Source: Rickettsiales bacterium
GTDB taxonomy: Bacteria > Pseudomonadota > Alphaproteobacteria > Rickettsiales > UBA1997
Assembly (NCBI GenBank): GCA_018969185.1
Contig: JAGWYT010000003.1
Span: forward strand, 3,843 to 67,842
Length of the DNA stretch: 64,000 nt
Direction of reading: 5' to 3'
Shown: positions 3,001-12,000 of the stretch, in pieces
Numbering within the stretch: position 1 is the stretch's first letter
Layout of the letters: every line of letters begins with the position of its first letter
Made by a program: the position numbers

Positions 3001-6000
3001 CTTGCGATCCACCAACTTCAGCTAATAATTGTTCAAATGATTCATCAACATGCGAAACGTCAATTCTATCTTGCGGTCTTTTTGGACCAGCCATATTTGG
3101 ATTAACCGTTGAAATATCAAGTTCTATTATTTCACTAAATTCAGGAGCAGAATTATGATTTTCACAAAACATATTTTGTGCTTTAGCATAAGCCTCAACT
3201 AACTCAATAGTTTCATGGCTTCTGCCTGTTAATTTAAGATAATTTATAGTTTCATTATCTATTGGAAAAATACCGCAGGTTGCACCATATTCTGGCGCCA
3301 TATTAGCAATTGTTGCGCGATCAGCCAAAGCAAGGTTATCTAGGGCTGGACCGAAGAATTCAACAAATTTTCCAACTACACCTTTTTTACGCAAAATATT
3401 AGTAACAGTAAGAACTAAGTCAGTTGCGGTAATTCCTTCTTTTAATTTACCAACTAATTTAAAACCGATCACTTCTGGAATAAGCATTGAAACTGGTTGA
3501 CCAAGCATTGCTGCTTCTGCTTCAATTCCACCAACACCCCATCCAAGCACTGCCAAACCATTAATCATTGTAGTGTGGCTGTCCGTTCCAACAACAGTAT
3601 CTGGATAAACCATAGTTTCACCATCAACTTCTTTGCTCCATACAACTCTTGCTAAATTTTCTAAATTCACCTGATGGCAAATACCAGTTCCCGGTGGAAC
3701 AACACGAAAATTATTAAATGATTTTTGTGCCCATTTTAGAAATTCATAACGTTCAATATTACGCTTCATTTCAAGATTAACATTTTGCTCAAAAGCGTTT
3801 TTCGAAGCAGAAAAATCAACTTGCACCGAGTGATCAATAACTAAATCAACAGGAACTAAAGGATTGATTTTTTTTGGATCTTTATTCATTTTTTTAACTG
3901 CATCACGCATTGCCGCCAAATCAACAACCGCAGGCACTCCTGTAAAGTCTTGCATCAAGACACGCGCTGGAATATAAGAAATTTCAACTCTTTTTTCAGG
4001 ATTTTTTACTGAATCAATTAGGTTTGCGATATGACTTTCATTTATTACATCACCATCAAAATTTCTTACCAAATTCTCAAGCAAAACCTTCAAACTGAAA
4101 GGTAATTTTGATATATCTTTTCCTAGTTTCTTTGCTGCTTCTTCAATTGAAAAAAACTTATATTCTTTTTTAGTTAATTTTAGCGAAGATTTTTTAACAA
4201 ATTCTTTAGTCATGTTTTAATTAGAATTAGTTGCAATTACAAGCCAATTTGGACTGTTTACAGTAACATCTCTCTTGAATTTCCAAACATCACTTAGTTC
4301 AAAAATTTCATCTTTTTTACCTTCAATAATATCACCTTTCTGGTCTGTAACATAATTTATTTGTCTTGAAAAAAATTTTACTGTTACTAAAGCATCATTA
4401 CCAATCATTGATGCCGCTATGATTTCCGCCTTATCAATTGCAATAAGGTTTGTAACTAAATTTTGCCCCATTGATCTTCTAGTGCTAATTGCTTGATCAA
4501 AACCTGAATATATTTTATCCGCCAGTAAAAATTTAAGAGTTTCTAAATCAGCAACAGCAAAAGCTTTAACTACCATTTCAAAAGCCGATTTTGCACCATT
4601 TAAGAAAAATTCGGCAGAAATATTGCAAGCTTTTATAGCATCTAAAAATTGTGATTTTGATTTTTCATCAAGACTTGCAACAATGGATTCTTCAACCTGA
4701 CTTTTTACTGCTTTTTCTTTATTTTCTTTTTCTTGAGTGCTATGCTGACCGACAACTGCTTGCCCTGCAGCCATTTGACTTTGAATTTCTTCTATCAGTT
4801 TTTTTCTTTTTTGGATTTTTTCTTCAATACGTTTTTTATCATCTTCATCAACCTTACCAAGCTGCTCTCTAAGCTTAAAAACAACATAAAATGCAACTGC
4901 AGCAAAGAATATTATGTCCATTTTGAATAAAATTAGGAAATCTGAAAACTCTATTTGTAAAGTGGGGCAAGCGACGGGTTTCGAACCCGCGACCCTCAGA
5001 ACCACAACCTGATGCTCTAACCAACTGAGCTACGCCTGCCATTAAATTAAGAGACATCCATTTAAAATTCGAAAGGCTTTAATGTCAAGTTATTAAAAAT
5101 ACTGTAATAGAGAATTATTCCTTGTTACACAAAAGTGTCATCCTAAGCCTTACAACAAAGTAAAAATCTATTGATATTGAATTGATATTAATTGCATTAG
5201 ATTTGTTTTTTTGGCTAAAAATTAAGAAAAGCCTCCTTTCATTTTTCTTAATTTTTATCTCAAAAATACTTCGCTACCGCGATCAATACATTTTTACTTT
5301 GGTATAGAATTTGTTTTACAAGGATCTCGTGCATTTTCTGAGATCTTTCGCTCACAGCCACTAAAAGTGGCTATACAACTCAAGATGACCTATAATATTA
5401 ACTATCTAAACTTGTTATCTTAGCGTCAATGTTACGAGCTTCAGAAGTATGGCTTTCAACCTCACTTTGTAAACTTGTAATATCATTTTCTAATGTACTA
5501 ACTTTAACTCTTTCTTCAGCAGTAAGAGTTGCTGCATCTTTCGCTTGTAGTATTTTAAGCTCCTCTTTTTTAACACTTATTTTCAATTTAGCTAATTTAG
5601 CTTTTGATAATGTAAGTTCTTTATCCATGCTATAGCTATCTTTTAAAACCCTCTTATCAGAAGAAGTTTTATCTAATTTATCATCTTTTTTAGTATTATC
5701 AGCTTTTTCAGAATCAGTATAATCATCAGCAACGTCTTTATCTTTTTTAATTTCTTCAAGAGTATTATTCATTTCTTCCAATTTCTTTTTAACCTCTTCA
5801 AGATTATTTCCTTTCGCTATATCTCCATTTATAGTTGCTTCAATAACAGTAATTTTATTATCAACAATTTCTAAATATTGTTGTTGATCAATAATCAAAT
5901 TCATTCTTGCAACTGAAAGATTTTCTTTAGCAATTAAAATCTCATCTCTAATAGATTCTTCATCTTCATCCGTATCATTATTTTTTGAATTTTTATGGAA

Positions 6001-9000: not shown

Positions 9001-12000
9001 AACAAAGGCAATCTTAATCACATTAATTATGTAGAATGTTGCAGAAAGCAAGACTACATAGATGAAATATGCTATTGATGCGTAAATAGCTAAAATATAT
9101 AAAATGCCAAAATAACTACCAAAAAACAAACCAAATATTTTTTTGGCAGCAGCTAAAGACATCAATTTTTTTATAGTAAGATCAATAAATGAGAAGCGAG
9201 TTGCATTGCTTACATCAGTGGCACGCTCCATTTGTGCAATAATTATTGATGTGTTTTCATCATTCAAATTACCATCTGATAGATCCATGAATAAGCCAAT
9301 CACGTAATCCATACTATCTTTAAAAAATGACACTATGATATCATTATAAAAAGACCAACTAGTTGGACTGGTAAAAAATATAATCAACCCAATTTTTAAA
9401 ACTCTGGTTGTTAATTCTTTTTTAGTAATTGCAGCAAGACCAAGCAAAGTGGCAAGGCCATAAAAGGCAATATACATTGAAAGAAGAATCTGTAAAACAG
9501 TGATAAATAAAGAATCTTGAACTATAGATAAATACATGTATCTGATAATTCCACCTTCCCTCTGGCAATGCCTCTTATGTGTCACACTATCTATTTCTAC
9601 ACAGGTACTAGAATCTATTTTTCCAAGAACAGTATCCTCAACTAAACCAACTAAATATTCCAATAATCCAGTATCATCAGCCTTACCAACCCCTTTAAAA
9701 AAATTAACATTATAGCTGCCATTATTGTCTAAATAATAGCTATCATAAATTACTAATTTTACATGCTCATTTGCAGTGTGAAAAGTGGCTGTTCCATTAT
9801 CATATCCATCATCATCAGTGTTATTATTGTATGGCGACGGTTTATTATCATCCTTAACAAATATTTTATCATGAGCACTTTTAAACATGTATTTTGTAAC
9901 ATCCTTACCATCCTCATCCTTACACTCACCATTACTATCAAGAGCAATATCACATACAGAACTTTCAGTAAATAAATGATAAACCCGAATTGGGGTTGTA
10001 ACACCATTTCTACCAAAAAGACCTAAATATAAACCCATTCCACCATCATATTTACAAATGCTCTGATCATTTGGAGTTAGCACATGTCCATATTTATCTT
10101 CATAATTTAGCGGAACATGATATGCTGTGTAGGCTGTCGCAACTCCATAAGTCTTGGTACATGTGCATTTCTTAGGATCGTTTTGATCAGCACCGCTACA
10201 ATCTACACCAGTAACTGGTGTATATCCATCAGCAGATATTTCTGGTTCTGAAATTTGATTTTTATAGCACAAACAATTGCCATCAACAATACTATCTTTC
10301 TTAGCGCAAAAATTACATCTTTCTAGATTATTAAATGCTGCTCCAGTAGTAGAACTACCAAACCAAGGAAGCCAAGAACCGGTAATTTGAATTACAAATT
10401 TATCACCATTTGATCTAAAACCAGTGTCAGTCCAGGTAACTTGTTGACCACCACTATCAGGAGTATCTAAATAATCCCCAGTAATGGCAGATGCACCAGG
10501 ATTTGAGCTAATACTAGAATAATTTCCATCGAATTGGTCGGCTTCGACGCACCCAGAATCACAAGAGGCGACAAGGAAAGCAAAAAAAATCACAGCAAAA
10601 ATCTTAGCAATTTTTTCTGCCAAATTCATCATTAGATAAGAAAAATTAAGGAGATAAATCTACAGCAAATGGTACCTGCGGCCGGACTTGAACCGGCAAG
10701 GGCGTTAAGGCCCCACGGATTTTAAGTCCGTTATGTCTACCATTCCATCACGCAGGCAAAGACTCAAAAGAGCGCGTTAAGATAATTTTTTTAAGAGCAA
10801 ATTGCAAGAGGAATTTCGATAATTTCTATACTTTAAACTCATGAGATCATTCGGCTTCGCCTCAGGATGATACGTTTTTGTCATCTTGAGCTATAGAATT
10901 TCTTCTAGAAATTATTAGCGAAAGATCTCATGAGTTGTATAAAATAAAACTACAAAACAACTTCAACCAATTTCTCAGAATTCACAAACTCCAGATTCTC
11001 AGCATTGCAAACATTTTTTAAATCTTCAGAAATTTCAGATAAATCAACTTTAGAACTTACAATTAATTTCTTCACCGTTGTTTTCATCGAAATATTTTTT
11101 TCTGACTTAAATTTTCTAACTTCAAAAATCACCGCTAATGCTTCCTGCCCTATTTCAAAAGCTTTTTGATTAAATAATTTTTCTGATAATTTTGGCCAAT
11201 TACCGCGAGCATTAATTGATTTAGTTTGTGCAAATTCTTCAACAAAAATTGTTGAATAAATTTCATCACAAACATGCGGAATGAATGGTGCGAAGAGTTT
11301 TAGTAAAGTGTTTAAGCAAATTTTTAAAGTTACAATTGCGCTTTGTTGTTTTGCTTCAATTTCTTTTTTCTGAATTTCATTTAACTCAGCTCCCGCAAGC
11401 TTTTCCGCCGCAATTCCATAAGAACGCACTTTGCAAATTTCTAAATAATTATCACAAAAATCACGCCAGAAAAATTCTTCAATTGCTTCGCGAGCTCTGG
11501 CATATTCAAATTGCTCAAATTCTGCAGTTGCTTTAGATACTGTTTGCTGTAAGCGTGATAAAATCCATAGATCAGATGTTTCGGTGATTAACTTGTCATC
11601 TTGAGCTTTACAATCGCTTTTAGCGATTGTTAGCGAAAGATCTCGTGCAACATTCTGAGATTCTTCGCTACGCTCAGAATGACAATTTAATAATTCAAAA
11701 TTCATCGAGGCAAATTTTGCCGCATTGAAAAGCTTGGTCACAAGTTTTTGTCCAATTTTAAAAACTTCCTCAGAGTAAGCGGTGTCAGCTCCAAGATGCG
11801 AAGTTGAAGCCCAATAGCGCACAATATCCGAACCTTTTTCTTCAATTAATGCAGTTGGCGTAACAACATTTCCTTTTGATTTACTCATCTTAGTTTTGTC
11901 GGCAGCCAAGCACCAGCCTGATATCATCAAGTTTTTCCATGGAATTGAATTTTGATGAAGTGCCGCTTTTACAATTGTATAAAATGCCCAAGTTCTAATA

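Follow-up and report, generated by a model that had tools for sequence, protein, structure and literature searches.

The window analysed here is a stretch of 64,000 nucleotides (nt) from contig JAGWYT010000003.1 of a Rickettsiales bacterium (assembly GCA_018969185.1), and the subject of this report is a gene at 5398-10632 on its minus strand that encodes a giant protein resembling VirB6 of type IV secretion systems (T4SSs). A preliminary description, made from the sequence alone, had read this gene as an orphan VirB6/TrbL-like lipoprotein of 1744 amino acids (aa) with a Cys-rich periplasmic domain and a coiled-coil tail of roughly 1000 residues. The listing of open reading frames (ORFs) confirmed an uninterrupted ORF of 1744 aa, with its stop codon at 5398-5400; its GC content is 0.319, compared to 0.322 for the window. 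The same protein, 100% identical, is deposited at NCBI (P0001, encoded on a contig of 70,168 bp) as 'MAG: type IV secretion system protein [Rickettsiales bacterium]', MAG being the abbreviation of metagenome-assembled genome.

Domain architecture of the giant VirB6-like protein

The hydrophobic part of the protein, at about 361-660, carries an LGPVF...FKRW motif and corresponds to the VirB6/TrbL core. The Pfam family TrbL/VirB6 (PF04610) matched residues 386-591 with 56.3 bits (E=5e-15, cutoff 25.9), so that the membrane core placed at residues 370-665 or thereabouts in the preliminary description was recovered by the family profile. AlphaFold2 (AF2) modelled the core as seven long helices (approximately 374-397, 404-421, 426-455, 461-505, 509-556, 561-599 and 627-658), and the five best Foldseek matches were all chains of the R388 protein TrwI/VirB6 (probability 1.0, TM-score to target 0.51-0.60), the first of them being 7o3v_G (E=7.5e-4, TM-score to target 0.60). 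In the alignment of family cores, the Trp of the FKRW motif, Trp567, was invariant (174 of 174); the conserved VirB6 Trp, which follows the LGP...F motif, has been described as essential (PMC2653234). Pfam, fold and the invariant Trp show the VirB6 identity of the core, and an unrelated transporter at this position was ruled out by the first two. Sequence similarity to TrwI was too low for phmmer against PDB sequences, which gave nothing below E=0.8, and for tblastn of residues 1-660 against 72,556 plasmids, which gave no match. Between core helices 6 and 7 lies a beta-hairpin whose Cys, Cys605, was present in 172 of the 174 aligned cores.

Ahead of the core lie a signal peptide and a Cys-rich N-terminal domain (N-domain). 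The signal peptide has a basic n-region (K7, K10), a hydrophobic h-region and the lipobox L-V-A-S-C24, which fits the pattern [LVI][ASTVI][GAS]C. Approximately 31 of 41 aligned relatives have the lipobox Cys, most of the others being miscalled starts, and at least 90% of the VirB6-like family keep it, usually as 'SCD'. With this textbook signal, the protein is predicted to be a bacterial lipoprotein (an Lgt/LspA substrate), as the preliminary description had proposed from the same LVASC lipobox. The N-domain, for which about 350 residues had been expected, is acidic (pI 4.6) and contains 13 Cys, 11 of them conserved. AF2 (model 1, residues 1-1000 with the family alignment, mean predicted local distance difference test score (pLDDT) of 75) built it as a beta-rich domain, mostly strands, with pLDDT of about 78-90. 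No match to the N-domain was found in Pfam, NCBIfam, PDB sequences (phmmer) or PDB folds (Foldseek), and the NCBIfam scan returned 0 matches.

The number of Cys in the mature N-domain was odd in 131 of the 136 family members that have a lipobox and a full N-domain. Counts of 11 (101 members), 13 (20 members), 9 (5 members) and 15 (3 members) indicate therefore that Cys have been gained and lost in pairs. Judging from these sequences, the N-domain is probably periplasmic and disulfide-bonded, with approximately six disulfides. Because the odd counts and the near-invariant Cys605 together make the total even, the simplest reading is that one of these disulfides would join the N-domain to the hairpin Cys605, in which case both would sit in the oxidising periplasm and the N-domain would be locked onto the core.

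The post-core region (661-1744) comprises 1085 hydrophilic residues and is not uniform (AF2 model 2, residues 660-1744 with the family alignment, mean pLDDT 67.5). A Gly/Ala/Ser-rich flexible linker leads into a basic helical domain at 749-999, which has a pI of 9.9, contains 0 Cys in this protein and is non-heptad. The following region, 1000-1655, is rich in charged residues (35-58%) and scarce in Pro and Gly, and was modelled as helices of 50-90 residues (pLDDT 62-83) with disordered stretches at about 1000-1048 and 1346-1408, the latter acidic. The protein ends in a helical hairpin, and this helix-loop-helix pattern is common to nearly all family members. Identity to relatives along the protein was 0.4-0.6 up to residue 650, 0.2-0.4 up to about 1000, 0.06-0.14 over 1000-1650 and about 0.2 over the last 90 residues, where occupancy was 0.9.

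A coiled-coil tail of about 1000 residues, as first described, was thus an overstatement. The E/K-rich long-helix part spans only some 650-700 residues, and the remainder is made up by the linker, the non-heptad basic domain and the hairpin. Hydrophobic periodicity of 3.5 residues was significant but modest (z=3.4) for residues 1000-1744 only, and strong heptads were confined to four segments of about 30-35 residues (1039-1068, 1128-1162, 1604-1638 and 1708-1744); parts of the long-helix tail could be single alpha-helices. The term 'myosin-like' does not hold as a statement of homology, as Foldseek of the post-core domain and tail against PDB found nothing significant (best tail match E=0.77). 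Repeats in the tail were detected neither in the DNA by Tandem Repeats Finder nor in the protein by self-BLASTP.

Table 1. Features of the giant VirB6-like gene, its neighbours and the VirB2-family gene in the window
Feature	Residues	Position	Strand	Basis or remark
Signal peptide and lipobox	1-24	10561-10632	-	MMNLAEKIAKIFAVIFFAFLVAS, then C24, +2 = Asp; read from sequence
Cys-rich N-domain	25-360 (336 aa)	9553-10560	-	AF2, conserved Cys, parity
VirB6/TrbL core	361-660	8653-9552	-	PF04610, Foldseek, AF2
Conserved VirB6 Trp in FKRW motif	Trp567	8932-8934	-	alignment of family cores
Beta-hairpin between core helices 6 and 7	603-622	8767-8826	-	AF2 strands 603-611 and 614-622
Cys in helix 6-7 hairpin	Cys605	8818-8820	-	family alignment
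Gly/Ala/Ser-rich flexible linker	661-748 (88 aa)	8389-8652	-	pLDDT <50 in both AF2 models; low conservation
Conserved basic helical domain	749-999	7636-8388	-	AF2 pLDDT 90-97 for 749-949
Hypervariable, highly charged long-helix region	1000-1655	5668-7635	-	composition, AF2, alignment
C-terminal helical hairpin	1656-1744	5401-5667	-	AF2 helices 1656-1696 and 1705-1743, pLDDT 79-95
tRNA-Leu (taa)		10670-10757	-	37 nt upstream of VirB6-like start codon; ARAGORN
tRNA-His (gtg)		4963-5039	-	downstream neighbour of VirB6-like gene; ARAGORN
Tim44-like protein gene		4217-5005	-	downstream of VirB6-like gene
Aconitase		1550-4213	-	downstream, past Tim44-like gene
hpf		937-1548	-	downstream, past aconitase
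TrbC/VirB2 pilin domain with about 200 aa of Cys-rich EGF-like repeats		37368-38294	-	PF04956, 42.6 bits vs cutoff 27.9

Family, neighbourhood and apparently scattered secretion genes

An NCBI protein search returned 92 strong homologues of 1053-2474 aa, all carrying PF04610, and the same domain was matched in all 23 + 5 relatives put through Pfam. A profile search of 1.84 billion representative proteins gave 2138 matches at E<=1e-3 and 496 at E<=1e-30, and more than 100 representatives (clusters at 50% identity) matched the profile from end to end (positions 1-950). The 749-999 domain is conserved in this first-tier family and absent from second-tier relatives, which have the N-domain (with insertions) and the core. 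Scanning of one genome per GTDB species turned up 73 loci, every one in an uncultured MAG with the label Rickettsiales or Alphaproteobacteria. Lakes were the main source, several species labels are obviously wrong, and none of the 73 came from a cultured Rickettsia or Anaplasmataceae genome. The placement in Rickettsiales made in the preliminary description agrees with these source labels and with published work. Likewise, no named Rickettsia or Anaplasmataceae proteins appeared among the matches in the homology and profile searches. The N-domain profile found three fragments and no named proteins in the named-protein database, a result that is uninformative about classical RvhB6.

The records themselves show some irregularities. 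Among L004-L073, many species labels are implausible (e.g., 'Rickettsia typhi', 'Rhizobium sp. Q54' and 'uncultured Rhizobium sp.'), and L001 (JACCDX011060658.1) has a contig numbering above one million and may be a contig of bacterial origin within an assembly that is very large and perhaps eukaryotic. The locus L004, at 10001-15695 of CAMDRL010000001.1, covers query residues 1-1742 (best-segment identity 45%) with a frame break in the N-domain region, its longest ORF beginning only at 10620, which may reflect a pseudogene, a frameshift or faulty assembly. In two relatives, large proteins with ankyrin repeats, a typical kind of T4SS effector candidate in Rickettsiales, are encoded a few kb from the VirB6-like gene (L002 15615-19748, 1377 aa; L082 1131-2627, 498 aa).

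The giant gene is flanked by tRNA-His and tRNA-Leu, both found by ARAGORN, with a valS-like ORF beyond the latter on the upstream side, in agreement with the preliminary description. From the 37-nt gap, co-transcription with tRNA-Leu is possible; a promoter and terminator scan around the gene, the short gap included, found nothing above chance. The downstream order of Tim44-like gene, aconitase and hpf recurs in relatives at only 36-42% identity, and because synteny persists over such a distance, the locus is old, chromosomal and vertically inherited. Recent horizontal transfer, or a fragment of an integrative conjugative element or plasmid, was ruled out by a GC content equal to that of the genome, the conserved housekeeping synteny and the absence of integrase and tra genes. 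An intact ORF of 5.2 kb, with strong conservation in more than 100 clusters, ruled out a pseudogene or decaying remnant too. The Tim44-like ORF as listed, with a GTG start, overlaps tRNA-His, so that its true start is probably an internal Met (MDIIFF...). The strong strand bias at 6001-8000 (GC skew -0.44, AT skew -0.28) is not a replication signal, since it stems from the E/K-rich tail, whose codons on the minus strand are purine-rich (GAA/AAA).

Pfam scans of the window ORFs found no vir gene next to the giant gene, which is not part of a virB3-virB4-virB6 operon of tandem paralogues and is instead a single copy among tRNA and housekeeping genes, likewise in all relatives examined. The other 48 window ORFs with 150 aa or more all belong to housekeeping or sugar biosynthesis, except for a TrbC/VirB2 ORF at 37368-38294, 27 kb from the giant gene. 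The word 'orphan' in the preliminary description therefore holds for the adjacent genes but not for the window. This VirB2-family protein, deposited as 'TrbC/VirB2 family protein', has a signal peptide and EGF-like repeats of the form CxxGFxGxxCxxC (laminin-EGF, PF00053, 21.6 bits compared to a cutoff of 21). Six close relatives of 381-407 aa carry laminin-EGF and/or SUEL/galactose-lectin (PF02140) domains, and most other relatives, at 170-250 aa, also exceed classical pilins in length. Adhesion modules on a pilin would be unusual.

To locate further T4SS genes, a VirB4 from a related contig and the VirB2 domain of the window were used as tblastn probes on the window together with 85 fetched loci, 1.40 Mb of sequence altogether. 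Neither VirB4 nor VirB2 was found within 10 kb on either side of the giant gene in any of approximately 80 family loci, whereas VirB4 lay within a few kb in all three canonical TrbL loci picked up by the same scan, which served as a positive control. In the MAG GCA_947442475.1, a VirB6-like gene and a VirB2-lectin gene are both solitary and lie on different contigs. The related metagenomic contig L085 (116 kb), perhaps of a different clade than the window, carries a solitary VirB2 (10001-10519, 172 aa) and a solitary VirB4 (13681-16098, 805 aa), 3 kb apart and each among ribosomal-protein and housekeeping genes, an extreme form of the rvh 'archipelago'. In Rickettsiales, the rvh genes form an 'archipelago' of islets according to published work, virB2 and virB4b being solitary (PMC2653234), and the T4SS is almost universally conserved, environmental lineages included (PMC10847448; PMC9352585). 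The T4SS genes of the present organism thus seem to be scattered rather than absent, and we infer a complete machine.

The same solitude could also mean that the protein is a repurposed VirB6-like membrane anchor that works independently of a T4SS channel, perhaps an envelope protein with a lipid anchor that serves to display or tether a long fibrous module. The difference from the canonical TrbL loci speaks for such an anchor, as do the conserved housekeeping synteny, extra conserved domains that have no T4SS counterpart, and a window of 64 kb in which no complete T4SS and none of VirB3, B4, B8-B11 or D4 was seen, a finding that also weighs against assigning the protein to a T4SS. We nevertheless consider an anchor of this kind very unlikely, because the VirB6-defining Trp and the fold are strongly conserved in the core, the window also has a VirB2 pilin gene, and one related MAG contains both genes. 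Furthermore, VirB2 and VirB4 are solitary in the related contig as well, which makes scattering the local norm, and Rickettsiales nearly always have a T4SS with scattered islets (PMC10847448, PMC2653234).

Elsewhere in the window, a long same-strand cluster of sugar-nucleotide and polysaccharide genes runs from about 17000 to 32300 on the minus strand, with a dTDP-sugar epimerase (RmlC-like), a DegT aminotransferase, several epimerases and dehydratases, a GT2 glycosyltransferase, DUF6492 and others. Two ORFs inside this cluster have no Pfam match (23543-24457 and 28388-29431), nor do ORFs of 518, 323, 156 and 172 aa at 57945-59501, 48799-49770 and 59634-60642, all on the minus strand.

Topology and possible role of the C-terminal region

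The locus is best explained as one that is inherited vertically and encodes an extended VirB6 subunit, in an uncultured freshwater Rickettsiales-like host whose T4SS genes are scattered, and we give this reading a probability of roughly 0.6. That the giant protein is a VirB6 subunit of a T4SS seems very probable when taken by itself, whereas the position of its tail is a far closer question. The post-core regions of 181 family members, which are hypervariable in length (369-1836 aa), contain 75 Cys in 146,500 residues (0.05%), a depletion of about 25-fold compared to 15 housekeeping proteins of the window (1.28% Cys), and 119 of the 181 regions have no Cys at all. Such avoidance fits a segment that would pass through, or reside in, an oxidising compartment.

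A second clue comes from two relatives whose tails contain a J-domain. In P0037, it covers residues 1463-1507 (44.5 bits, cutoff 27.8), and in P0074, residues 1520-1566 (24.9 bits, just below the same cutoff), both with an intact KYHPD[KR]; no other Pfam domain was found in the 23 longest-tailed members. A J-domain requires an Hsp70 partner, and a tail that carries one must therefore act in the bacterial cytoplasm or the host cytosol and not be a purely periplasmic resident. The J-domains in the two tails fit delivery to the host cytosol.

These domains would also be sensible in the bacterial cytoplasm, where DnaK, their usual partner, is found, and with other evidence they raise the tentative possibility that the post-core region 661-1744 is a bacterial-cytoplasmic scaffold or tether, which would lie beneath the machine, dock ATPases, the coupling protein, chaperones or substrates by means of its basic domain and conserved terminal hairpin and, in some lineages, recruit DnaK. 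The loop charges of the core agree with this, as KK..R..K at 404-413 and K565/R566/R574 would mark cytoplasmic loops, followed by a periplasmic hairpin and the last hydrophobic helix at 630-652. A simple positive-inside reading would thus put the C-terminus in the cytoplasm, in keeping with the classical VirB6 topology of a periplasmic N-terminus and a cytoplasmic C-terminus, the latter experimentally mapped for VirB6 of A. tumefaciens (cited in PMC7648143). Moreover, the post-core domain is strongly basic (pI 9.9), and export of about 1000 highly charged residues would be costly. All of these points weigh against an extracytoplasmic tail, and the Cys depletion is partly expected from an E/K-rich helical composition. 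A further caution on the preferred reading is that the proposed disulfide between the N-domain and Cys605 comes from the parity statistics of related sequences and not from model coordinates, and RvhB6a-e and the Anaplasmataceae VirB6-1 to VirB6-4 were compared by description, not by sequence.

A cytoplasmic scaffold, for its part, leaves several observations poorly explained. The Cys depletion of about 25-fold extends to the folded domain at 749-999 and is odd for cytoplasmic proteins of the same organism, and a hypervariable length combined with a conserved tip is seen more typically in modules that are exposed or that set the reach. The experimental precedent for extended VirB6 is extracytoplasmic, since trypsin shaving of A. 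phagocytophilum indicates that VirB6-3 and VirB6-4 have their C-terminal extensions exposed at the surface (PMC7648143). In R388, VirB6 is a pentamer of seven-helix subunits of which helices 1-2 alone lie in the membrane and bind the pilin and VirB10, while the remaining helices build a periplasmic stalk with VirB5 on top (PMC9259494, PMC11294453); hydrophobic helices 5-7 are not membrane-spanning (PMC9259494), and this arrangement was counted in favour of an extracytoplasmic tail. Cys avoidance, the hypervariable stretch with its conserved tip and the precedent in A. phagocytophilum lean towards the extracytoplasmic side, and we rate that position of the tail as an even chance.

With an extended VirB6 subunit as the preferred reading, the protein would form a pentameric platform at the inner membrane and stalk of the T4SS. 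Its N-terminus would be lipid-anchored in the inner membrane, and the N-domain would fold in the periplasm with its six or so disulfides, one of which would staple it to the Cys605 hairpin between core helices 6 and 7. The stapled N-domain may then act as a rigid collar at the stalk base, beside helices 1-2, the pair that binds pilin and VirB10 in R388. From there, the C-terminal build would consist of the conserved basic helical domain, a long-helix spacer of variable length and the conserved terminal hairpin, and may run up or through the secretion channel to place the conserved tip at the cell surface or the target cell, comparable to VirB6-3 and VirB6-4 of A. phagocytophilum. In some lineages, the tail would carry a J-domain into the host cytosol. 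A more specific version, which we regard as doubtful, makes the protein platform and projectile at once in a T4SS without VirB5. The five tails of the pentamer would thread the channel as a Cys-free helical fibre whose length differs by lineage, with the terminal hairpin as the distal tip that contacts the target in place of VirB5, the J-domain of some lineages engaging host Hsp70 and the stapled N-domain as a new periplasmic collar at the stalk base. The N-domain itself was also considered as a VirB5 homologue, and this was ruled out; it is beta-rich and lipid-anchored before helix 1, which should place it at the stalk base and not at the top, so that the two could share only a loose functional analogy at most.

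The tail could also be cargo, a secreted effector that proteolysis would cut off behind the core or the linker and for which the VirB6 part would be the export platform. Cleavage and release have been proposed for extended VirB6 C-termini (PMC7648143), the disordered 88-residue linker at 661-748 would be a plausible site, and J-domains in two tails are compatible with an effector. However, structural roles are suggested by the conserved basic domain that follows straight on the linker and by the terminal hairpin, likewise conserved, there is no sign of processing in the protein and no known T4SS C-terminal signal features were identified in it, which makes cleaved cargo unlikely. It also overlaps with the extended VirB6 subunit that we favour instead of excluding it.

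Another inflated VirB6 is unsurprising by itself, while the Cys and J-domain clues may be useful to specialists on T4SSs and Rickettsiales. The family is a large natural data set, with more than 100 clusters of the same layout and hundreds more with the N-domain, and it yields testable ideas, which concern a disulfide between domains that would fix part of the topology, a tail in which Cys is avoided to an extreme degree, a conserved terminal hairpin parted from the core by a spacer of variable length, and occasional J-domains. It is also relevant to the way in which Rickettsiales-like bacteria of early-branching or environmental lineages make contact with other cells through a T4SS without VirB5, in a setting where the VirB2-family pilin gene of the window also encodes EGF-like repeats and the pilins of close relatives have EGF or lectin domains. 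If the tail is indeed extruded, this would change the view of how the VirB6 stalk works in effector-translocating systems.

Comparison with known VirB6 systems

Extended VirB6 proteins are a recognised class, defined by at least five hydrophobic helices and one or more large hydrophilic central or C-proximal domains (PMC12857230; also PMC7648143), and the giant protein, with a 300-aa core and then 1085 hydrophilic residues, belongs to it. A 2025 review describes the function of the extra domains in this class as 'not yet known' (PMC12857230). The combination of features that the preliminary description had called unusual is less so in several respects, since the class is recognised, a lipoprotein VirB6 is known in Wolbachia, the exact protein is annotated as a T4SS protein and more than 100 clusters share its layout. 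The conserved Cys-rich lipoprotein N-domain, the hairpin Cys, the post-core domain that the family conserves, the variable tail that lacks repeats and ends in a conserved hairpin, and the strictly solitary syntenic locus all appear to be undescribed in the literature searched.

TrwI/VirB6 of R388 (PDB 7O3V, 8RT9, 8RTD) is the best structural match to residues 361-660 or thereabouts, with seven long helices, five of them hydrophobic, and forms a pentameric stalk base that recruits the pilin. Unlike the giant protein, TrwI has about 340 aa, no N-domain and no tail, and VirB5 is mounted on its top; the giant protein has in addition a hairpin insertion between helices 6 and 7 and approximately 1400 extra residues. 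TraG of the F plasmid and SXT resembles it in that a VirB6-like polytopic region at the N-terminus precedes a large hydrophilic C-terminal domain, which is involved in mating-pair formation and entry exclusion and is a cited extracytoplasmic precedent (as summarised in PMC7648143). However, TraG belongs to a different T4SS type, is encoded beside tra genes on conjugative elements and gave no detectable similarity in the plasmid collection (tblastn).

Within Rickettsiales, the Wolbachia wBm VirB6 protein Wbm0794 shares the lipoprotein signal, being a predicted and detected lipoprotein that localises as a single membrane cluster (PMC4197220). Wbm0794 is, however, an operon-embedded paralogue, and a Cys-rich N-domain and a long-helix tail are reported here for the giant family and not for Wbm0794. 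The Rickettsia proteins RvhB6a-e are likewise inflated (674-1154 aa), with divergent regions flanking TrbL and with scattered islets, in an rvh system that has no VirB5, and the virB6e orthologue of O. tsutsugamushi, which is not arrayed with virB6a-d, provides a precedent for a solitary gene (PMC2653234). In contrast to RvhB6a-e, whose genes are arrayed by virB3-virB4a, the giant protein is larger and has defined conserved extra domains.

Also close are the extended VirB6 proteins of Anaplasmataceae (VirB6-3 and VirB6-4 of A. phagocytophilum and the paralogues of Ehrlichia and Wolbachia), which share the TrbL/VirB6 core, the invariant Trp and a very large hydrophilic C-terminal extension. Some of these paralogues have predicted N-terminal signal peptides, and their extensions vary between strains (PMC7648143). 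They are encoded as four tandem paralogues in a sodB-virB3-virB4-virB6 operon and their extensions consist of tandem repeats (e.g., A. phagocytophilum VirB6-4), whereas the giant gene is solitary, in housekeeping synteny, and its tail has no repeats. As far as the two can be set apart by their descriptions, the giant VirB6-like family adds to the Anaplasmataceae plan a Cys-rich lipoprotein N-domain, a basic post-core domain and a terminal hairpin.

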